Source: an uncultured Bacteroidota bacterium (GTDB lineage Bacteria; Bacteroidota; Ignavibacteria; UBA10030; UBA8401). Taken from it: DNA of 64,000 nucleotides. Positions 16,407 to 52,612 of this stretch are shown one piece after another (the stretch's first letter is position 1; every line of letters begins with the position of its first letter). Both the position numbers and the translations under genes were made by a program. The DNA lies in assembly GCA_963717445.1 (NCBI GenBank), contig OY970334.1:965798-1029797 (forward strand). The letters are read 5' to 3'. The notes under the pieces are model-generated. The model did no database searches. It was not told where the DNA came from and saw only the letters and a list, made by a program, of their open reading frames with translations.

Positions 16407-17963
16407 TCACTTCAAAAGAATCATTTTCTTTACTATCACGGTTTCGTTTGTCTCCAAACGATAGAAATAGATGCCGCTTGGAAAGTCACGGCTTGAAAAA
16501 ATCACTTCATGAACTCCCGCAACCTGACGTTCTTTTGCGAGCATTGCAACCTTTTGTCCCAACTCATTAAATACCTCGAGTGTTACATAACTGTTCACTG
16601 GCAACTGATAACTGATTATCGTGCTTGGATTGAACGGGTTGGGAAAATTCTGCGACAGAGATGGCGAACGGGGCGACATCATCTGCCGGTCGTTCGAGAC
16701 ACGAGTCACATAGTCCGATTCAAATGCGCCAAGATCGGGAGCGCTCCCGTTGAACGGCAACCCGACGTTGGTACCTGCATCGATCAGGTCGCTCCCCTCG
16801 GCAAGATGCATAAAAAGGATATCCGGCAAACTTCCATCCGGCTTGCGCGGCCCGGTAACTCCGGCAGTATCCAGACTCACAAAATCCGTGTCTGTCACTG
16901 AAAACGGAGGCAGCCAACTGTTCGTCGCCTGCACGGCGCTTGCCAGCACTGAAACCCCGCCCGTCCCCGCCGAGATACAGTTCTTGATCGTGAGGATTGA
17001 GCCGGTCTTCAGCGCTTCGTTGATGTGGTAATTTGTCCCGTTCCTGTAGCCGGTACAGTTCAGGAGCGTCATCGATCCTCGGTTGTTATTCTGGTCGAAT
17101 CCTTTCACGCGATTGTCGAAGGCGAGACAATTTATCAATGTCATGTTGTGGCGGAGACTATCGGCATTGGAGTTGTCGCCTCCACCCATTTTGAAGCCGT
17201 TGCCGTTGCCGACGCTCGCCGCACCGCTCTTGAGATATCCGTTGTGAAATGTCCAACACATTTCAAAGGTCGTGAAGACGCTGTCCGAGGGACGCAAATA
17301 TCCGTCGCAACCGTCATCTGAATTTTGCCAGGAGCGGCAGCCATAGAAATAATTGTTGGTACCCACGTCAAGCTTTGGAGCAAAACCATCGGCGTTTCCT
17401 TGGCTTGGGTCGGCATTATAGTAGGAATCGCAATTGATGACCCGGTTGTTCGAAGCTCCGCCCCCCAATTGGAGCCCGGTATCTTCGTTTTCGCTGAACG
17501 AACAGTTCTCGATAATATTGTTCGAGCCGCTGATGATCATGCCGTTATCGCCAGCCCTCCAAATATCGAACCCTTTGATGTACCAGTAATTCTTGCTAAG
17601 GTTGATGCCCCTGTTGCTGCCGGAAATCGCCATGGCGCTGAAATCAAGGAATGGCCGCTCCCCGGGATATGCAAAGAGATAGTACATTGCACTGCTTGTT
17701 CCGCTCTTCGGGGTATTGATAGTGCTCGTCAATGAGTATGTACCCCCGCGGACGTACACCGTATCCCCAGCATGCATAATGGACAAAGCTTTGGTGATCG
17801 TCTGCAATGGTGCGTCAATGGTGCCGGCACTCGTATCACTCCCCGAAATTGAAACGTAGAGTTGAGCCTCCATGATATTGAGCATCAGAAGCAAGGCAAT
17901 ACCGACAATAGCGGATCGGGTCGCCAGCAAACTCATCCCCGTTTTTCCACGCGTTGGTTTCAT
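16407..17963 (-). CDS. Pectate-lyase-like beta-helix protein (DUF1565 / PL9-like N-terminus) with type A T9SS C-terminal domain
   Basis: N-terminal TIDAPLQTITKALSIMHAGDTVYVRGGTYS is followed by beta-helix NxxxxN repeats. The C-terminus reads LSQNFPNPFNPSTIISY...GIYFYRL...VKKMILLK. It overlaps the downstream TonB receptor by 4 nt. Confidence 0.6.
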   Translation of the reverse strand: MKPTRGKTGMSLLATRSAIVGIALLLMLNIMEAQLYVSISGSDTSAGTIDAPLQTITKALSIMHAGDTVYVRGGTYSLTSTINTPKSGTSSAMYYLFAYPGERPFLDFSAMAISGSNRGINLSKNYWYIKGFDIWRAGDNGMIISGSNNIIENCSFSENEDTGLQLGGGASNNRVINCDSYYNADPSQGNADGFAPKLDVGTNNYFYGCRSWQNSDDGCDGYLRPSDSVFTTFEMCWTFHNGYLKSGAASVGNGNGFKMGGGDNSNADSLRHNMTLINCLAFDNRVKGFDQNNNRGSMTLLNCTGYRNGTNYHINEALKTGSILTIKNCISAGTGGVSVLASAVQATNSWLPPFSVTDTDFVSLDTAGVTGPRKPDGSLPDILFMHLAEGSDLIDAGTNVGLPFNGSAPDLGAFESDYVTRVSNDRQMMSPRSPSLSQNFPNPFNPSTIISYQLPVNSYVTLEVFNELGQKVAMLAKERQVAGVHEVIFSSRDFPSGIYFYRLETNETVIVKKMILLK

Positions 17964-18138
17964 CGAACAAATCCCTTTCGCTCTATCATAAAAAAGAATG
18001 CGCGTTGCATCCCGAACAGGTACATCTCGTGATATTCATTGCCATACTATTTCGCCAACGATATTTTAGATTTTTAGAATGACCAGAATTTCTTGTCAGG
18101 GACACACATCGAGTTGGCATAAAAAGCCATTTTTCCCT

Positions 18139-18165
18139 TAATCGTTTACTTTATCGGTAACGTAA
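18139..18165 (-). promoter_or_regulatory. Conserved upstream motif, copy 1 (TAATCGTTTACTTTATCGGTAACGTAA), ~175 bp upstream of the PL9-like / TonB receptor / beta-helix operon
   Basis: Direct sequence identity with the copies at 20623-20649 and 44742-44775. All three lie upstream of minus-strand transcription units for secreted pectinolytic or T9SS proteins. Confidence 0.45.
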
Positions 18166-18244
18166 TATCGTGCAAGAATCTCCTGCGCGTGCCCGGTTTC
18201 CGGACATAACCCCTATTATTGATGATTACACCAATACGACCCCG

Positions 18245-18283
18245 TCGCTCGCAAGAATTAGTTAGGTCAATTCTTGCGAGCGA
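18245..18283 (-). terminator. Perfect 15-bp stem / 9-nt loop hairpin downstream of the 18342..20516 gene
   Basis: TCGCTCGCAAGAATT-agttaggtc-AATTCTTGCGAGCGA lies 60 nt past the stop codon. Confidence 0.45.
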
Positions 18284-18341
18284 ACGTCGGGCGCAAACGA
18301 CTGTCTCGCACCCAGAAGCGACCGACCCGATAGTCGAGCTG

Positions 18342-20622: not shown

Positions 20623-20649
20623 TAATCGTTTACTTTACCGGTAACTTAA
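20623..20649 (-). promoter_or_regulatory. Conserved upstream motif, copy 2 (TAATCGTTTACTTTACCGGTAACTTAA), ~110 bp upstream of the low-GC T9SS protein gene
   Basis: A 22/23-nt match to copy 1. It sits between a terminator-like palindrome (20673-20693) and the start codon at 20516. Confidence 0.45.
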
Positions 20650-20670: not shown

Positions 20671-20693
20671 CCGGTTCGACAATTGTCGAAACC
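20671..20693 (-). terminator. Near-perfect palindrome GGTTCGACAA|TTGTCGAA(A)CC immediately after the stop of the 1277-aa gene, followed on the transcribed strand by a T-rich tract
   Basis: Read directly. On the minus strand the hairpin is followed by ...TATTTGTTTGTCTATTTT. Confidence 0.45.
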
Positions 20694-23600
20694 TACTTAA
20701 GCAACATCATCTTCTTTACTGCAACAAAATCTCCAGCATGGATCCGGTAAAAATAGACCCCCGATGCTCGACCGTCCTGGGTGGAAAAGGTCACGGTGTA
20801 GCTCCCCGGCTGCTGCATCTTGTTGACAAGCGTCGCCACTTCCCGCCCCAGCACATCGTAGACAATAAGTGAAACCCTGCTCGCCTTCGGCAACTGATAA
20901 AATATCTTTGTCGAAGGGTTGAAGGGGTTGGGATAATTCTGCGCCAGGCTGTATTCTTTTGGAATGTTGGAAAGCTCGTCCTCGACCGACGTGATCGCGC
21001 CCAATTTCCCTATCGCGAAATAACCGAAGCTTGTTATGCCTGCACGAGAGAGTGTGTACGGTTGAGTAGTGAATTGATAGGAATAGATTCCCGTTCCAAC
21101 CTCAGCGGTATCCGGAAGGTGCACAATCAGATCATTTGTTGTCCGACTCGCTGCGAACGTCGTGTCCTCTTGCGACGCCATCCAGCCGAATTGAAGTGTC
21201 GCATTGCTGCCGCCCGGAGTCTTTTCGGTGATGTCCCATTTCAGCTTCACACGACCGTTGCCGCTCCTCGTCCCTCCGACAGAATCTGGAACAACGGACA
21301 CAGAAAAGGTGTCGACGGTCCCAGCATTCGTGATCCAGACGGGAGAATACGCAGCCGCAGTCCCGACGGGGAAAAGTGTTTGGGCCGCGCCGACTCCATA
21401 CCGTGTTACGCTTCCACCGCTGTCTGTCGCAATATACCGGAATGTCGATGCGCCGTTGATCGCGACTGCTGCCAGATTCTTCGATCCGACAAAAAATTTT
21501 CCTACGGTCAGCGCAAGAGTTCCGTTGACTGTCGTTTTTGAAGAAAGTCTCACCCCAAGTGTGTCGCTGATCGTGAGATTATTTACGGTATCCGGAAGAA
21601 GTACGCCGGTTTTTTGAGGAGCAAGGCCGTCGAAAGTATAGTTCGCGCTCTTGCTCAGCGTCTTCACACCCATGGTGGCCAGAGAACTGTCCAACCCGTT
21701 CACATGGCCCGATTCCAGCGTTGCCCCGGGCGAGAGCGTGAACGTTCCGGTTCCACCCAGCACGCTCGTGCCCATGGTGAGAGTTGTGCCGCCGCTGACT
21801 TCAAGCGGAAGTCCCCCTCCGCCGTATGTCACGTTCGAGAGCGTCAACGTCTGACTGCCGGCTTTTGCGAAGACAAGCTTCGCAAATCCGCCACGCGTGG
21901 TCAGCGTCGAATTGGCTGTCGTCGCATTAGAGAGAGAAAGATTCCCTGCGTATAAACACCAGACAGTGTTCCCGGATCCAGCCTGGTTCCCCTCGCTGAT
22001 TGAGAAATTGCCGCCGGTAACTGAAACGTTTCCGAAATGATACACGCTGTCGCTCGTAGCAAGGCTAGTTCCCTGCACTCCAAAATTACCCCCTTGCACA
22101 ATGACGTCGCCGTTAATCGTCAGCGCACTGTTAGAATTGCCGAAAAGGTACACTTGCCCGGTATTGGTATTAACCACTTTGAAATACCCGCCAAGAGTGT
22201 CTCCTCCAAAACCGAGAATCGTGTTCGCAGTTTGGTTGGGGCAATTCCATTCGACATTGTAGAAATTCTGATTTGTCCCGCCGGCGAACGAGGTCGCACC
22301 CCTGATCCCGCTGATACGTAGAAGCGATCCGTTGCTCCATGTTGCTGTCGGGATCGTGCCGCCGTTCTGAGCATGTTCATACATCCCACCGTTACCGACA
22401 ACAAGCGTAGCTCCGGTAGCGAGCGTTAGAGTTCCGGCGTTCACGAGAGAGCCGAGGACTGTAAGGTCCGTCCCCGTCCCGTCCGCGACAACGAGCGTTT
22501 TCGCCGAATCGATTTTCAGCGTTCCGCCCGTGTTCACCGTAATTTGATCCGCATACTCGCTGTCGGAGACGTCAACGGTGTGGCCGGTTTGAATAGAAAT
22601 GATACTATCGCTCGCACTCGGGGCGACCGGTGCCGGGTAAACCCAAATTGTTCCGTTGTTCCGCTCCCATGTGTTTACATCCGACCAAAGGCCCGACTGA
22701 TGCGAACGATAGTCTCCGTCTCCCGCAACGAACCCGGTAAAATTACCGACGGCAAAAGCACCGAATGCCGTGATGCCGCCGCGCGCAACGGTGTACGGCG
22801 CCGTGGCGAGCTGCGAGGTATAACTTCCTGTGCCGACTTGTGTCGTATCCGACAAGCGAAAGATTTTCGCATTCCCGGCGCGGTCCACAGAGAAGATCGG
22901 ATCTTCCAGAGAGGAAACCCAACCGAACTTTAGCGCGGCATTACTCCCGCCTTGAGTATTTTCAGCGATGTTCCATTCCACTTTTACTCTCCCCCCTCCA
23001 TTTTTTGTTCCCCCCAGAGTATCCAAAACTACACCAGCGGTGATTGTGTCGACCGTGCCTGTGTTTGTGATCCAGAACGGTGCGTACCCTCCCGATATGC
23101 CGACGGGGAAACCTATCTGCGAGGATCCAACACTGTTCACCCTGAGCGTACCGCCGCTGTCCGTCGCGACGTAACTGTTCGTAGATCCCCCCGCCGTAGA
23201 ATTTGCAATGATATTCTTTGTGCCGATTTCCAAAATGCCGTTGGTGAGCGTAAGTGTGCCGTTGATGGTATCGGACTTCGGGAGTGTGACACCTGCGGGA
23301 TTATTGATCGTGAGATTCTTGACAGTCGTCGGCATTAACGAGCCCATCACCTGCGCAGCCATCCCGTTGAATGTGTAGCTTGCTGCACTGCTAAGCGTCT
23401 TAACACCCGTATTTGAAAGCGTGCTGTCCAACCCTCCGGTGTGTCCAGATTCGAGCGTCGCCCCTGTGTCGAGAACAAAAGTCCCGGAGCCACCAAGAAC
23501 ACTTGTCCCCATAGTTAGCGTTGAAACCTTGCTGACTTCTACCGGGCAGCCGCCTGCAAACGCTACTCCAGAGAGGGTCATCGTCTGTTTGCCCGCCTTC

Positions 23601-24526
23601 GCGAAAACAAATTTCGCACCGGCTGCATTTGAGTTCTGAGTCGTTGCGTTTGACATCGAGAAATTGCCGTAGAGGTTCCAAACAGCCGTCCCGGTTCCTC
23701 CTTGGCTCCCGCGCGAGACTGAGAAGTTCGTGTAAGAGTTGTTTGCCGGATTTCCAGTGACAGTAATGTTGCCCGCCACATTGATGATAATAGTAGTTCC
23801 TGCATTGCTTGTACCGTTCGATGTAACGCCGACAAGCGCCGATGAGGTTGAGGCGCTACCATCGACGGTCAGATTGCCGCCGATGTTCACCGTATCCGAT
23901 ACGCCGGAGGCGTTGGGCGCGCACAATTGCCACCTCCCTGACCCAGTGTTCTGCACCGTGATGTTGCCGGCAATATTCAAAGTGCCCCCCGCTGTGTTCC
24001 ATCCGAGGTTCAAGTTACCAGACCATGAGGGGCAATTGACCGTCAAGTTGTAAAACGCCTGAGTCGCATTAAGTCCAGTTGTCGAACTCGTGATGCCGGT
24101 GATCAAACACGTTGAGCCCGTTTTCCACGTTGCCGTAGGAATACCTTGTCCGGAGTTTGACGGATGTGCAAACTCGTACGTTGCCCCGCTATCTACCGTT
24201 ATCGAGCCAGAGACCACGTTGATGTACGCCTGATCTTTTACGTATCCATTGACAACGATTGCCGATTTTCTGAGAGTGTCAGGATTTCCGGCAGTCAACG
24301 TCACTATGTGCCCGTCCTGGATTGTAATCGTGCCTGCATTACTATCCGGAGGAGCAACAGCCGCATTCCAGGCAGAACCATCAAAGGTCTGCCACGTCGC
24401 CGCGACATTCCAATTACCCGATCCCGAAGATCGAAAGTCTCCCGCGACTTGACCTAAAGCCGGCATCGCTGCACAAAGAATGACAACGAATGTCAATCCT
24501 GCCAGAAAAGTAAAATTCGTTTTCAT
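20693..24526 (-). CDS. 1277-aa secreted protein built from an internally duplicated ~550-600 aa module, with type A T9SS C-terminal domain; unknown function
   Basis: Module 1 starts GDFRSSGSGNWNVAATWQTFDGSAWNAA and module 2 starts GDGDYRSHQSGLWSDVNTWERNNGTIW. The two modules are collinear, for example KFVFAKAGKQTMTLSGV against KLVFAKAGSQTLTLSNV. The C-terminus reads LAQNYPNPFNPSTKIFY...GVYFYRI...VKKMMLLK. Confidence 0.65.
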   Translation of the reverse strand: MKTNFTFLAGLTFVVILCAAMPALGQVAGDFRSSGSGNWNVAATWQTFDGSAWNAAVAPPDSNAGTITIQDGHIVTLTAGNPDTLRKSAIVVNGYVKDQAYINVVSGSITVDSGATYEFAHPSNSGQGIPTATWKTGSTCLITGITSSTTGLNATQAFYNLTVNCPSWSGNLNLGWNTAGGTLNIAGNITVQNTGSGRWQLCAPNASGVSDTVNIGGNLTVDGSASTSSALVGVTSNGTSNAGTTIIINVAGNITVTGNPANNSYTNFSVSRGSQGGTGTAVWNLYGNFSMSNATTQNSNAAGAKFVFAKAGKQTMTLSGVAFAGGCPVEVSKVSTLTMGTSVLGGSGTFVLDTGATLESGHTGGLDSTLSNTGVKTLSSAASYTFNGMAAQVMGSLMPTTVKNLTINNPAGVTLPKSDTINGTLTLTNGILEIGTKNIIANSTAGGSTNSYVATDSGGTLRVNSVGSSQIGFPVGISGGYAPFWITNTGTVDTITAGVVLDTLGGTKNGGGRVKVEWNIAENTQGGSNAALKFGWVSSLEDPIFSVDRAGNAKIFRLSDTTQVGTGSYTSQLATAPYTVARGGITAFGAFAVGNFTGFVAGDGDYRSHQSGLWSDVNTWERNNGTIWVYPAPVAPSASDSIISIQTGHTVDVSDSEYADQITVNTGGTLKIDSAKTLVVADGTGTDLTVLGSLVNAGTLTLATGATLVVGNGGMYEHAQNGGTIPTATWSNGSLLRISGIRGATSFAGGTNQNFYNVEWNCPNQTANTILGFGGDTLGGYFKVVNTNTGQVYLFGNSNSALTINGDVIVQGGNFGVQGTSLATSDSVYHFGNVSVTGGNFSISEGNQAGSGNTVWCLYAGNLSLSNATTANSTLTTRGGFAKLVFAKAGSQTLTLSNVTYGGGGLPLEVSGGTTLTMGTSVLGGTGTFTLSPGATLESGHVNGLDSSLATMGVKTLSKSANYTFDGLAPQKTGVLLPDTVNNLTISDTLGVRLSSKTTVNGTLALTVGKFFVGSKNLAAVAINGASTFRYIATDSGGSVTRYGVGAAQTLFPVGTAAAYSPVWITNAGTVDTFSVSVVPDSVGGTRSGNGRVKLKWDITEKTPGGSNATLQFGWMASQEDTTFAASRTTNDLIVHLPDTAEVGTGIYSYQFTTQPYTLSRAGITSFGYFAIGKLGAITSVEDELSNIPKEYSLAQNYPNPFNPSTKIFYQLPKASRVSLIVYDVLGREVATLVNKMQQPGSYTVTFSTQDGRASGVYFYRIHAGDFVAVKKMMLLK

Positions 24527-24582
24527 GTCGATGCTCCTTCTTGTCTGGTGTGTGTTTTTTTGCGTTTTAAGTTCTAAGTTAT

Positions 24583-24645
24583 ACGTTTTACGTTTTACGC
24601 TTTACGTCTTACGTCTTACGTATAACATATAACGTACAACGTAAA
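24583..24645. repeat. In-phase heptanucleotide tandem array (ACGTNNN)x9
   Basis: Read directly: ACGTTTT ACGTTTT ACGCTTT ACGTCTT ACGTCTT ACGTATA ACATATA ACGTACA ACGTAAA. It ends 1 nt before the stop codon of the CE8 gene and lies upstream of the 1277-aa gene, whose start is at 24526. Confidence 0.85.
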
Positions 24646-24646
24646 A

Positions 24647-25933
24647 CTATCCAGTAGTAAAATGCCACGTCGGGCCTCGAAGCGTATCGGCCCCGTCAAT
24701 CTCGTCGATCCGCCAATAATATGTCGTATGTGCGCTAAGCCCCACAGCTTCGAATGAAGCAAGCTTCTGATTTTTCATGAACAACGGAGCTGCTTCCTTC
24801 CCGAAATAAACGTCGTGCGATTCTGCGTTCCGCGCCGGAATCCATCGCAGACTGACTTCCGTCCCTTCCACATCATAAGCTGCATCACGTGGAAATGGGA
24901 AAGCGACATTGGCAAGAACTGAGGGCATTTCTGCTTCAGGATTCCATCTGCTTCCGAACGTCCATTCTGCAGTTACTTGCGCAGGAGTCGGAGAACCCTC
25001 CGCAGTTGAAAGGTTGTCCTTGAACCAGGCAAAATCTCCCCCCTCGCGATGACAGTTGTAAAAGTAATGACGGGATCCCCAAACCCAAGGCACCAGGTTC
25101 GGAGAATTGAGCGGCGCATAGATCGGCTCGTCTGCCATGTTCCTTGAAAAAATGCAGTCAAGCAAATAGAATTGCGCGTCGCGGTGATGGCGACCCAACG
25201 GAAATCCGGGAACGCCGTCAAATTGAGAATACCTGATAACAAACTTCTGGTCCTTGTTTGAACTCCCGTCGTGCCAGATGCTCGCACTTAGGTTGTGGCC
25301 GTAAAACCGGCTATCGGTGATGTAACACCATCCACGAGGGCAGACAAAATCGACCCATCCCTCGAAGTAACAGTTTGCATGGTAGTACATACCTTCCGCG
25401 CGGTTCCACAAACTCATCGTGTCGCCGCCGTCGGCGATCACGTTGCAGTTCAGAAAAATTATGCGTGTCGCATTGAAGCCGCGAACTGCAAATTGGTGCT
25501 CGTGGTTACCGTAGAGACTTCCGTAATTGTTGTACACGGTAAGATTCGCCATGGTGATGTCCGTTACCCCATTTCCGATATTGACAACCGCCGAACCCCA
25601 ATCGGCACTGTCGAAACTTCCCTCACGATGGTTGTTGGGAATTTTCGTCCAATTCGCACGTAACTCCGCGTACACAATGCGGGTGCTGTCCCTCTCTTCG
25701 CCGACAAGGGCAATATTGCTTTTTGTTATAAAGAGCTTCTCCTTATAAATGCCTTTCTTAATGAGGATGATGATCAGCTGCTCGGCGTTTTGGGGGACCG
25801 AATTCAGCGCTTCCTGAATGGAGTGAAACTGACCTGTTCCGTCCTGCGCGACAACGATATCCGCACGTTCGGTGGCCGTTACATAAACGCGACCGGCAAA
25901 GAAAAAGAACACCGCTAGAAAAACTCGTTTCAT
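24647..25933 (-). CDS. Pectinesterase (carbohydrate esterase family 8)
   Basis: Signal peptide MKRVFLAVFFFFAG (ATG verified 25931-25933). Contains IVVAQDGTGQFHSIQEAL, the classic pectin methylesterase N-terminal block, then beta-helix repeats. Confidence 0.75.
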   Translation of the reverse strand: MKRVFLAVFFFFAGRVYVTATERADIVVAQDGTGQFHSIQEALNSVPQNAEQLIIILIKKGIYKEKLFITKSNIALVGEERDSTRIVYAELRANWTKIPNNHREGSFDSADWGSAVVNIGNGVTDITMANLTVYNNYGSLYGNHEHQFAVRGFNATRIIFLNCNVIADGGDTMSLWNRAEGMYYHANCYFEGWVDFVCPRGWCYITDSRFYGHNLSASIWHDGSSNKDQKFVIRYSQFDGVPGFPLGRHHRDAQFYLLDCIFSRNMADEPIYAPLNSPNLVPWVWGSRHYFYNCHREGGDFAWFKDNLSTAEGSPTPAQVTAEWTFGSRWNPEAEMPSVLANVAFPFPRDAAYDVEGTEVSLRWIPARNAESHDVYFGKEAAPLFMKNQKLASFEAVGLSAHTTYYWRIDEIDGADTLRGPTWHFTTG

Positions 25934-25945
25934 GTTCGCCGTCAT

Positions 25946-29337: not shown

Positions 29338-30405
29338 TTATTTAGCCTCAACAGCGATTTTTTTCTGTAGCGAGAGGGGGTTGCACGTTTCTCTCAGAGT
29401 TAAACTCGCGGGGATCACGATGTGACGTTCTTTTTGTTTTTCATGACTCTTGATGACGTTGAGAATCGTGCGAACCGCCGTTATACCGAGTTCCCGTGTC
29501 GGCTGGTTCACGCAACTCAAAGCGGGCGAAAGCAAATGACTCATATCACTGTCTCCGAAGCACATGATGTCGATATCATCAGGAATTTTCAGCGCCAGTT
29601 TTTTTGCCGCTTCGTAGACTCCGAGCGCCACAGGATATGTTGCGGCAAAAATGAATTCCGGCAGCGTCCCCTTGTCATAGAGTTGCATGAATCCGTCGTA
29701 GCCATCTTTTGTTCCGAAGCCGCCGGGGACTATCCACTCCTGGCGAATCGGAATATTATGGCTTTTCAGCGCCTCTTCGAACCCAAGGAGGCGATTCTTG
29801 CCGATATTGATCCATGGATTCCCACCCCCGATAAATCCGAGCTTCCGGTGGCCTGCGTTGACGATCGCATGTTCCACGGCGTTGCGCGTCCCCTGCCGGT
29901 CGTCAATCAGGACCGAGTCGAAACCAAAAAGCTTCGGCTCCGGCATGCGGTCGACAAAAAGGAGAGGAACGCCCATCTTCTTCACCCATTGAAAGATGTC
30001 GAGGTTTTTCGTTTCCTGGGAAATTGAGATGATGATTCCGTCGACCCTCATTGAGATGAGCGTCTCGATATGCTTCCTCTCCCGTTCTTCGTTTTCCTGC
30101 GAAACGGTTAAGATCGTTTCGTAATTATTCTCAAACGCGGTGTTGTACACCGCCTCGATCAGCGATCCGAAGAAAAAGTGTGCAATTTTCGGGACCACGA
30201 AGCCGAGCATGTTCGAACGGCGCGCCGAGAGATTGCGTGCCATATAGTTCGGGCTGTAGCCCAATTCTTTGGCGATGCGCCTTACTTTCTTGGCAGTCTC
30301 ATCGGAAATATCGGAGTGACCTCGCAAGGCCTTTGAGACCGTTACCCTTGAAACTTTGAGCTTCCTGGCTATATCATCCAATGTAACATGGGCACTGCGT
30401 TTCAC
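29338..30405 (-). CDS. LacI-family transcriptional regulator
   Basis: N-terminal HTH VTLDDIARKLKVSRVTVSKALRG followed by a periplasmic-binding-protein-like sugar-binding core. Confidence 0.85.
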   Translation of the reverse strand: MKRSAHVTLDDIARKLKVSRVTVSKALRGHSDISDETAKKVRRIAKELGYSPNYMARNLSARRSNMLGFVVPKIAHFFFGSLIEAVYNTAFENNYETILTVSQENEERERKHIETLISMRVDGIIISISQETKNLDIFQWVKKMGVPLLFVDRMPEPKLFGFDSVLIDDRQGTRNAVEHAIVNAGHRKLGFIGGGNPWINIGKNRLLGFEEALKSHNIPIRQEWIVPGGFGTKDGYDGFMQLYDKGTLPEFIFAATYPVALGVYEAAKKLALKIPDDIDIMCFGDSDMSHLLSPALSCVNQPTRELGITAVRTILNVIKSHEKQKERHIVIPASLTLRETCNPLSLQKKIAVEAK

Positions 30406-44439: not shown

Positions 44440-44741
44440 TGATTGTCACTCTCACGCTGTACCAAGGTTCATTAGGCCTGTTGCTTAATGGTAAAAAATG
44501 AATCTTTATGATTTGCTTTGTGGGATCGGGACCCGCTCGTTGTGGAGATGAATGAGTCGCGCTTACATTACTATTATAGGCTGCCCCATATAGTAGCTAC
44601 TATGTTGAGAATTGTGATGTAGGCTGGAGCATCTCCCTATGAGCAATACAGAATGATTTTACTACGCTATGACTGCCGGACAACTCGCGAAAAAGAGAAT
44701 ATTGAGGGTTTCGATGAAAGTTTTGGAAATTATGGGCAAAC

Positions 44742-44784
44742 TTTACTTTATCGTTTACTTTACCGTTTACTTGCTTGGCAAGCA
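44742..44784 (-). promoter_or_regulatory. Conserved upstream motif, tandem degenerate copies (TTTACTTTATCG TTTACTTTACCG TTTACTTGC) followed by the palindrome TGCTTGGCAAGCA, ~300 bp upstream of the GH28 gene at the head of the 24.6-44.4 kb gene array
   Basis: Read directly from the sequence. It shares the ATCGTTTACTTTACCG core with copies 1 and 2. Confidence 0.4.
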
Positions 44785-45162
44785 TACAAAAGATTTTATT
44801 GTATGTCAAGTCTTTTTTTAAAAAATCACTTTTTTTATAGCTATCGGAAATCCACAGCGGGGACAACCGGACCCATGCAAACATGGATTGTTTTGAGGGG
44901 GCAAATCAATATGAGCTTGGTTTTTAACGCCCTAATGTCCATGTGATTTCGAGCGGGCATACTGCAGCACGATGAAAGAAGTGAACGATGACTGTCCAGA
45001 AGAAGCTTGAAGCCTTTCGACGTTCTCGACTTGAGGTGCGTTCAAATATCTATACTTCTTATCGTAATAGGATCAGTCATACCAAAAGCAATAATTTTAC
45101 ACGGCCATATTTCAATACATCCTCACAATGTCCACGCTCAAAAATGGTACTGTTCGAATGTA

Positions 45163-51779: not shown

Positions 51780-51939
51780 AGCACCCTGCTTGAAATGAGA
51801 CCTTCATCTTCAAAGTTTCTAAAACAAAATATCCAAACTTCGGACAGTTTGGACATTCAACAAAAACTATGCGGACGCTGGATCAATTTTCTTCAATGAG
51901 CCGAAGAGATGGATCGATGGATTTGCACTCGGATGAGAG

Positions 51940-52356: not shown

Positions 52357-52612
52357 GGAGTTCCTTGTGCAAACACGATACGAACAATTCGGAGGAAAAT
52401 CAATCCGTCGGACATATCCACGAAGCTCACGAACAAACACGAAGAGAATATGATTAAAGGATGTTATCTATTAGACCCTCTAGGCGAAAAAATTATAAAC
52501 CGCATAATACAGATTTAACCCTTCGTGTTTCTTCGTGTCCTTAGTGGAAGACAAAAAAAGCTCCGGTTGATTGCGGCGCTCCGGAGCTTTCATTGTAAAA
52601 AACAAATGGAAA

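Follow-up and report, generated by a model that had tools for sequence, protein, structure and literature searches.

A two-armed heptanucleotide array between a pectinesterase gene and a T9SS-protein gene, a candidate intercistronic mRNA hairpin in an uncultured Bacteroidota bacterium

Between a pectinesterase gene of family CE8 and the gene of a 1277-aa protein carrying a type IX secretion system (T9SS) sorting domain, an uncultured Bacteroidota bacterium (GCA_963717445.1, contig OY970334.1) has a tandem array of imperfect 7-nt units, and the question raised by this locus is what such a repeat does in the space between two genes, if it does anything at all. The original prediction had noticed nine units anchored on the tetranucleotide ACGT and had proposed half-sites for a bZIP-like or other ACGT-binding regulator, a slipped-strand phase-variation tract, or a terminator or antiterminator structure. 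We surveyed the window, i.e. the whole 64-kb stretch of DNA in which the array lies, and compared it with related loci, designated L001 to L176 and amounting to 1.6 Mb in all. We put at about one in two the probability that the tract is a degenerate heptanucleotide simple sequence repeat (SSR), shaped by slippage into a quasi-palindrome, which would act as an intercistronic mRNA hairpin influencing the processing or the stability of the transcript.

Extent and predicted fold of the array

On the plus strand, the nine heptads were found exactly where they had been reported (24583-24645), with the same 7-nt phasing, non-coding, and lying between the CE8 stop codon and the start of the 1277-aa gene. 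The array is however longer, since three further in-phase units (GCGTTTT AAGTTCT AAGTTAT, at 24562-24582) precede the nine and bring the total to 12. It fills the 120-nt gap that separates the CE8 stop from the start of the 1277-aa gene, both genes being on the minus strand, and it ends 36 nt before the ATG. In sense order, the features of the gap and its two flanking genes are the following:

24647-25945, minus strand: upstream gene, pectinesterase (CE8, PF01095), with its TAG stop codon at 24647-24649
24563-24646, minus strand: heptanucleotide array, 12 in-phase units in the sense-strand register
24618-24648, minus strand: 5' arm of the predicted hairpin, made of U/G-rich units and starting inside the CE8 stop codon
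24601-24617, minus strand: apical part of the predicted hairpin (ACGU/ACGU mini-stem and loop), mostly the two TAAGACG units that are missing in L001
24570-24600, minus strand: 3' arm of the predicted hairpin, made of A/C-rich units, more numerous than those of the 5' arm
24540-24562, minus strand: A/C-rich unpaired linker CAAAAAAACACACACCAGACAAG from the hairpin to the ribosome-binding site, the CCAGAC part of which is kept in most orthologues
24534-24539, minus strand: Shine-Dalgarno sequence AAGGAG of the 1277-aa gene, clear of the predicted hairpin and not sequestered
20693-24526, minus strand: downstream gene of the 1277-aa protein, with its ATG at 24526; apart from a T9SS type A C-terminal sorting domain, no domain was recognised in it

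Read on the sense (minus) strand, the gap consists of TAG, the 12 heptads, CAAAAAAACACACACCAGACAAG, AAGGAG, CATCGAC and ATG, and the units are TTTTACG TTGTACG TTATATG TTATACG TAAGACG TAAGACG TAAAGCG TAAAACG TAAAACG TATAACT TAGAACT TAAAACG. Four U/G-rich units come first, and the eight A/C-rich ones after them are approximately their reverse complements. The drift from T-rich to A-rich units and the resulting self-complementarity of the array, both noticed at the outset, are upheld by the palindrome and fold analysis.

Tandem Repeats Finder (TRF) reported period 7 at 24558-24621 (9.1 copies, 84% matches) and at 24618-24647 (4.3 copies), with 82-84% matches overall. The three-unit ACGT pattern ACGTNNNACGTNNNACGT, allowing at most one mismatch, has eight matches in the window, all of them within the array (0.13 expected; 0 of 100 shuffles reached eight), and the period-7 self-match over 49 nt is 42/49 at the array, the runner-up position in the 64 kb having 26 and the best self-matches outside the array at periods 4-12 being 23-27. 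The array is the sole strongly periodic tract within the window; neither the pattern search nor the self-match scan found a second copy there, and the search for other (ACGTNNN)n arrays that had been recommended returned none elsewhere in the 64 kb. A second-array candidate reported by TRF (ATAACTG x4 at 16587-16616) was rejected, as it lies in a stretch that codes for a T9SS C-terminal domain.

A defining trait of long simple sequence repeats (LSSRs) is a tandem series of equally long units in excess of chance, and the array has it, but its units are not the perfect, identical ones of that class. The 12 units comprise nine distinct sequences and identical neighbours never number more than two in a row, which corresponds to a degenerate SSR, decayed or diversified. 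Except for these imperfect units, the tract fits the definition of a heptanucleotide LSSR. The contig L171 of the Logan assembly matches the window at 100% over 3366 nt and has an identical gap sequence, which argues against an assembly artefact, though L171 probably comes from the same sample. This contig was reached through the database protein P0123 (MGA9407836.1, from a Bacteroidota metagenome-assembled genome (MAG); 428 aa, with a start four codons later), and an exact-protein look-up with the 432-aa CE8 open reading frame (ORF) gave no match.

The sense RNA, the folding of which had been suggested along with the proposed regulatory roles, is predicted to form a single imperfect stem-loop of about 32 pairs with a minimum free energy of -33.9 kcal/mol (z = -4.45 compared with dinucleotide shuffles), while the antisense strand folds at -30.6 kcal/mol. 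The first paired base of the predicted stem is the second one of the stop codon, and roughly every 7 nt the pairing is broken by a single mismatch. The Shine-Dalgarno sequence and the start codon remain unpaired, about 30 nt downstream of the stem. By prediction, then, the repeat units make up an arm of a long stable RNA hairpin, as in the hmw genes of Haemophilus influenzae, and the array is an imperfect palindrome between co-directional genes, in the manner of the repetitive extragenic palindromic (REP) elements. Rfam had no match at gathering thresholds in the whole window, and a permissive Rfam scan of the gap returned only generic miRNA-precursor hairpin models, all below threshold.

A stable stem-loop straight after a stop codon, in a gap that is among the longer ones of its operon, could also be an intrinsic terminator or attenuator closing the CE8 transcript. 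The hairpin on which that proposal relied is indeed predicted; however, it is not a canonical terminator, the stem being AU-rich and followed by an A-run (AAAACGCAAAAAAA) and not by a U-run, and no alternative antiterminator fold was found. A scan of 24000-25200 found no sigma-70-like promoter or terminator match in the gap, and there is no promoter or operator motif that would restart transcription for the 1277-aa gene. Canonical intrinsic terminators with a GC-rich stem and a T-run are present elsewhere in this genome, in the gaps 52441-52612 and 51780-51939 (sense = minus; e.g. AAAGCTCCGG...CCGGAGCTTTTTTTG). We consider it very improbable that the array terminates the CE8 transcript.

Orthologous arrays and covariation of the two arms

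Orthologues of the CE8 gap were drawn from genome and metagenome collections, the metagenome scan adding at least three close relatives. A heptad array is present at the same gap in seven species-level lineages, the window included, in register and with sequences and unit counts (about 7 to 13) that are all different:

Window (= L171): four 5'-arm and eight 3'-arm units; ACGT core throughout
L001: 5' arm as in the window; without the two TAAGACG units and with (TAAAACC)x4; ACGT core throughout
L161, sense: AAGTTAT AAGTTTT AAGTTAT ACGCTAT / ACTTAAA x3 ACGTAAA ACGTGAA ACATAAA
L030 (= L082), sense: AAGTAAT AAGTTAT AAGTCTT AAGTTAT AGGTTAT ACGTTAT / ACATAAG ACTTAAA ACTTGAG ATTTAGA ACTTAAG ...
L117: 11 units; 5' arm mostly with an AAGT core, 3' arm mostly with a CTTA core
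L175: about 10 units; 5' arm AAGTGAT/AAGTTTT, 3' arm ACTTAAG
L176, sense: AGGTTAT ACGTTAT ATGTTAT / ACGTAAA ACATAAA ACTTAAA x2; mixed cores

The ACGT core is found throughout only in the window and L001. In four of the seven species (L161, L030, L117 and L175) AAGT prevails in the 5' arm and ACTT in the 3' arm, and the cores of L176 are mixed. ACGT half-sites for a bZIP-like factor were consequently abandoned, as was an ACGT restriction or methylation site, the core not being conserved in the orthologues; the features that are conserved are the 7-nt period and the complementarity between the two arms. A stem-loop is predicted for all seven orthologous arrays, at the stop codon or within about 12 nt of it, and the 5'-arm unit is conserved across species at five of its seven positions, as U-A-N-G-U-U-N. 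Between the window and L001, the stop codon and the 5' arm form an identical run of 37 nt, the second longest in a 4.1-kb alignment with 79.8% identity, and the conservation of the 5' arm equals that of the best-conserved coding segments. The C/A-rich block CACAGACCAGAC of the linker (ACACACCAGAC in the window) is also conserved at the orthologous positions in L030, L117, L161, L175 and L176, which suggests a conserved unstructured 5' leader of the T9SS-protein gene.

The array occurs in seven of the eight lineages of the clade whose CE8 genes are about 80-92% identical, and it is absent from the CE8 gap of the outgroups L162 and L002. The array-less lineage of the clade is the L081 type (L081 and eleven further loci), which has a GC-rich palindromic insert at the array site. 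In a neighbour-joining tree of the CE8 3' ends this type is nested within the array clade, beside L175; a run of N inside the CE8 gene (L030:4311-4410) lowers the apparent identity of L030 and distorts its branch in this tree. The L081 gap (L081:2764-2931; same in L163-L170 and L172-L174) measures 165 nt and contains the insert GGGAAAAGGACGTTTCCC, then CCCTCCCCCGCGCG...GGGAGGG, with a single variable position across all these loci, GGGAGGG or GGGAAGG. Perhaps the insert is a small element, mobile or REP-like, that took the place of the heptad array.

The variable bases of the 5'-arm motif UANG and of the 3'-arm motif CNUA pair with each other. This pair is C-G or U-G in the window and L001 (UA[C]G:C[G]UA), A-U or G-U in L161, L030, L117 and L175 (UA[A]G:C[U]UA), and U-A in L176 (UA[U]G:C[A]UA), which illustrates that an anchor as striking as ACGT can be the lineage-specific state of a covarying base pair. 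In a consensus fold obtained with RNAalifold on a MAFFT alignment of the seven sequences, the helix has 20 pairs with 89.3% of the cells paired, compared with 82.1 +/- 1.7 after shuffling (0 of 500 shuffles reach 89.3%), and five of the pairs have changes on both sides. When the partner is slid by 1-3 columns the paired cells fall to 24-47%, whereas 80-85% are still paired after slides of 7, 14 or 21 columns, and the stem can therefore form in several registers; the surplus of units in the 3' arm likewise permits alternative registers at 7-nt steps. The case for complementarity is consistent and of moderate strength, but it does not separate selection for an RNA stem from template switching at the DNA level.

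The covariation also bears on a different explanation, in which the array would be a periodic platform for protein binding, its anchors spaced by 7 nt contacting an oligomeric RNA-binding protein or a DNA-binding regulator such as the LacI-family protein of the operon. The conservation of the 5'-arm unit at five of seven positions, the regular spacing across more than 80 nt and the presence of a LacI-family gene in the same operon would all be in line with this, and candidate RNA-binding proteins were proposed for the TAACTGA heptamer repeats (PMC4679880). However, the ACGT/ACG anchor is replaced by AAGT/ACTT in four orthologues and mixed in a fifth, and the variable base covaries with the other arm, as is expected of base pairing and not of base-specific contacts. 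Single units are not palindromic around CG, for which reason a LacI-type operator in single units was rejected, and a 21-nt motif with the palindrome TTACCGGTAA, described below, is a better operator candidate. A HutP- or TRAP-like site was rejected as well, because the middle base of UANG varies and covaries and because no such domain occurs among the seven neighbouring proteins scanned. No further array of this kind was found near other genes of the locus either, and a binding platform appears improbable.

The differences in unit number bring us to the phase variation that had been proposed for the tract. As a contingency locus, the array would switch or grade the downstream T9SS surface protein by frequent gain or loss of heptads, as in hmw1A/hmw2A. 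One part of this proposal stands: copy number has changed by whole units between relatives (window vs L001, and over the seven species), perfect runs of three to four units exist in L001 and L161, the heptanucleotide repeat lies directly ahead of the gene of a large secreted or surface protein, and hmw, with units of equal length and a hairpin, offers a precedent backed by experiment. The part that requires rapid change fares less well, since the units are degenerate (84% matches by TRF, at most two identical in succession in the window) and do not form a perfect tract, and since L030 and L082, one same-species pair, differ at 21/4642 positions (99.5% identity) without an indel in the array. 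The window and L171 do not differ either, though they are probably from the same sample, and no promoter was found whose spacing the array could alter. Frequent switching is quite improbable on this evidence.

The probable pectin operon, the predicted hairpin and the period of seven

The minus strand holds every gene from about 55.9 kb down to 1.2 kb. The gap is preceded by a packed co-directional run (GH88, a LacI-family regulator, a GDSL esterase, GH28 and the CE8 pectinesterase) with spacers from a 1-nt overlap up to 42 nt, next to which the 120-nt array gap is among the longer ones in the operon, and a gene for a 724-aa T9SS protein lies beyond that of the 1277-aa protein, for which no PDB relative was found. 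By the relatives of its CE8 protein, the organism falls among uncultured Bacteroidota/Ignavibacteriota MAGs of fen, peat and soil. A conserved 21-nt motif, GTTACCG[GA]TAAAGTAAACGAT, which includes the palindrome TTACCGGTAA, has three sites in the window (18141-18161, 20625-20645 and 44750-44770, minus strand; 0 expected), all three in long gaps upstream of apparent operon starts, and it is absent from the heptad gap. The motif is possibly a promoter or operator, a candidate site for the LacI-family regulator encoded at 29338-30405. From the tight co-directional arrangement of the genes, together with the lack of a promoter or terminator match and of the 21-nt motif in the gap, we infer that the CE8 and 1277-aa genes are co-transcribed, which would make the array intercistronic in a pectin operon.

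Two side observations concern the intergenic regions of these loci. The 21-nt motif has further sites at L001:9245-9265 and L081:6834-6854, and a sequence related to it is present in the CE8-to-T9SS-gene gap of L002, where the window has the heptad array. Two structured intergenic regions of the window, at 17964-18341 (378 nt, containing the perfect 15-bp stem GCTCGCAAGAATTGA...TAATTCTTGCGAGC) and at 44440-45162 (723 nt), have strong folds and no Rfam match.

According to the hairpin reading given at the start, replication slippage would have grown and reshuffled the repeat by whole 7-nt units within the intercistronic spacer, and the operon mRNA would have the U/G-rich units at the CE8 stop and the A/C-rich units next. 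Given two complementary blocks, the transcript, or single-stranded DNA, can fold into an imperfect AU-rich stem-loop of about 30 bp, and given that both arms are periodic, the stem is possible in several registers 7 nt apart. In vivo, such a hairpin would not terminate transcription and would leave the ribosome-binding site open, while offering a site of double-stranded RNA that could determine how stable the CE8-side and T9SS-protein-side parts of the transcript are relative to each other, or how they are processed. The stem is plausibly a substrate of RNase III, as in H. influenzae hmw, or a REP-like barrier to 3' exonucleases, and changes in unit number would tune the hairpin over evolutionary time and would not act as a rapid switch. 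We favour a role of this kind because the array persists at a coding divergence where neutral sequence should have decayed, because the 5' arm is as conserved as the best coding segments, and because the array-less lineage has another palindrome at the site.

Several observations nevertheless weigh against such a role. When the order of the 12 units was permuted, the mean folding energy was -28.0 kcal/mol, compared with -31.8 kcal/mol observed, and 7.6% of the permutations folded at least as well; in six other arrays (four orthologous, two independent) 0.6-9% of the unit-order permutations did so. Column shuffling of the window array gave 1.6% that fold as well. By these permutations, most of the folding energy comes from the composition of the units and their periodicity and not from their arrangement. 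Because periodicity inflates z-scores based on dinucleotide shuffles, as the permutations indicate, we set the value of -4.45 aside, and such scores can be said to overstate structure in periodic sequence. The predicted hairpins of L117 and L175 are weak (z about -0.6 to -1.0). Moreover, the G-U pairs have no consistent strand preference, the window and L030 favouring the sense strand and L117 and L153 the antisense strand, so that pairing at the RNA level and pairing at the DNA level are not distinguishable. The units within an array are also mutual copies, and the covariation may thus reflect very few events, while template switching at a quasi-palindrome could yield covariation without selection.

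A further point of this kind comes from the related loci, where period 7 is the prevailing one. In a TRF census of the 1.6 Mb (at least 4 copies, score at least 40), 25 arrays have period 7, one has period 8, two have period 14, one has period 20 and two have period 21, with none at periods 5, 6 and 9-12; the self-match scan of these loci found 12 places at period 7 and zero at periods 5, 6 and 8-11. Most of the period-7 arrays lie in short gaps of co-directional genes, just after a stop or just before a start, and their unit sequences are unrelated. One-armed arrays are common in these genomes (L057:6514-6570, L065:895-941, L067:4827-4857, L085:19800-19837, L114:2875-2940 and L139:7286-7322), and the period therefore needs no hairpin function. 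The excess of period 7 agrees with the heptanucleotide excess and the slippage idea of Mrazek et al. 2007, as they are summarised in PMC4679880.

Other arrays are two-armed and palindromic with units unrelated to those of the window. They are found at L039:2495-2566 (a Calditrichaceae MAG), between a T9SS-domain gene and a downstream gene, at L153:9875-9959, between an ORF of about 1000 aa and the next co-directional ORF, and at L134, about 16870-16935. The independent arrays of L039 and L153 fold better than 91-98% of their unit-order permutations. Further period-7 arrays are located at L134:17374-17490 and L151:15118-15150, and G/T-rich units tended to be located after stop codons and A/C-rich units before start codons.

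With this census in hand, the whole tract could be a neutral by-product, that is a self-perpetuating heptanucleotide microsatellite and quasi-palindrome, kept periodic and self-complementary by slippage and intrastrand template switching, without any effect on the expression of the flanking genes. One- and two-armed arrays of unrelated units in related intercistronic gaps, with period 7 as nearly the sole period, point to a mutational bias, and the same explanation would account for a hairpin energy just modestly better than that of the permuted units, for the missing G-U strand bias, and for an array that the L081-type lineage can do without and that L162 and L002 lack. It is more difficult to reconcile with the retention of the array in seven of eight lineages at about 80-92% CE8 identity, with a 37-nt run identical to L001 in a background of 79.8%, and with an arm complementarity held through three Watson-Crick pair types; nor would it predict that the array-less lineage has another palindromic insert at the same site. 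Neutrality is a possible explanation, but on balance a somewhat unlikely one.

That two-armed heptad hairpins recur between the cistrons of this group is possibly the more interesting point, although the 1.6-Mb sample is biased towards pectin loci and the recurrence is only sketched in it. Two-armed, register-degenerate heptad hairpins could, rather speculatively, be a recurrent functional intercistronic class in polysaccharide-utilisation operons of Bacteroidota, Ignavibacteriota and Calditrichota, in which the double-stranded RNA would be processed (e.g. by RNase III) and the number and register of the heptads would set the expression ratio of the flanking genes. We consider this generalisation unlikely, but if it were true, slippage would be an evolutionary rheostat for operon stoichiometry.

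Comparison with known repeats and hairpins

Heptanucleotide units are the most abundant class of prokaryotic long SSRs and polymerase slippage was proposed as their origin (Mrazek et al. 2007, as summarised in PMC4679880), and PMC4679880 (also PMC4692102) describes assemblages of heptamer repeats in Bacteroidetes intergenic regions that are absent from close relatives. TAACTGA repeats occur in Beggiatoaceae, Cyanobacteria and Bacteroidetes (MacGregor 2015). The array shares with these repeats its tandem 7-nt units and an intergenic location, often just before a start or after a stop, and, with the LSSRs, a period of 7 that outweighs other non-triplet periods and a copy number that varies among close relatives, some of which have no array. 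In contrast, its units are degenerate and not identical, they read TTATACG/TAAAACG or AAGTTAT/ACTTAAA instead of TAACTGA, and they are arranged in two reverse-complement blocks that give a hairpin, whereas the TAACTGA repeats were reported without a particular predicted RNA structure. The STRR heptamers of cyanobacteria are another example of repeats with a 7-nt unit.

Period-7 repeats were also observed inside coding sequence, in the window (16587-16616, in the gene at 16407-17963, minus strand) and at L017:3105-3137, L039:2233-2263 and L110:5537-5568. They fall where T9SS C-terminal sorting domains begin, just past NPFNP.T, where approximately (ATCAGTT)n encodes the peptide ISYQL(S/P)V. Since (ATCAGTT)n is the reverse complement of the TAACTGA heptamer, for which MacGregor 2015 noted the translation LSVISYQ, some of the reported Bacteroidetes 'TAACTGA repeats' may be the T9SS sorting domain.

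Two other kinds of system resemble the locus in part. In regard to position, the array is an imperfect palindrome in the spacer of a co-directional sugar-utilisation operon, a few nt past the upstream stop, and the role proposed for it, differential mRNA stability within an operon, is the same as for REP elements, a palindrome of this type reportedly being located between malE and malF of E. coli. The REPs, however, are dispersed, multi-copy elements of conserved sequence without tandem short units, whereas there is one copy of the array in the 64-kb window. In regard to periodicity, the RNA sites of HutP and TRAP are said to be periodic triplets bound by ring-shaped oligomers; HutP recognises UAG-N4 repeats, which have a 7-nt period, and TRAP recognises spaced GAG/UAG triplets. 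The array is similar in having regularly spaced short anchors on a hairpin-forming RNA leader, but its anchor base varies among the orthologues and covaries with the opposite arm, no cognate protein was recognised among the neighbours scanned, and there is no terminator to antiterminate.

The nearest functional analogue is the heptamer hairpin in the 5' untranslated region (5'-UTR) of the hmw genes. In the hmw1A 5'-UTR of H. influenzae, the left arm of a long hairpin consists of (AUCUUUC)n and cleavage by RNase III raises the expression of the adhesin, and in the hmw1A/hmw2A tracts a highly conserved heptamer is repeated 11-63 times, the length varying strongly from strain to strain (PMC12721329). 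In both cases a heptanucleotide repeat lies upstream of the gene of a very large secreted or surface protein, the repeat supplies one arm of a long RNA hairpin, imperfect and leaving the start codon free, and a stem of about 30 bp, predicted in our case, is plausible as a double-stranded RNA substrate. The differences are that the right arm of hmw is a G-rich non-repeat while both arms are repeats here, that the hmw heptamer is highly conserved while the units here are degenerate and have no within-species length variation in the one pair compared, and that the hmw repeats are downstream of a mapped promoter while the array is intercistronic.

Heptanucleotide repeats as such are thus known already, and what differs here is the two repeat arms, the degenerate units and the intercistronic position. 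By itself the tract is of little import, yet another heptanucleotide repeat, found in an uncultured bacterium of soil or peat. Should the hairpin reading prove right, 7-nt repeats prone to slippage would be shown capable of building structured RNA inside operons and of maintaining it, and the link between an SSR, a hairpin and RNase III recently described for H. influenzae hmw would reach a distant phylum and a position between cistrons.

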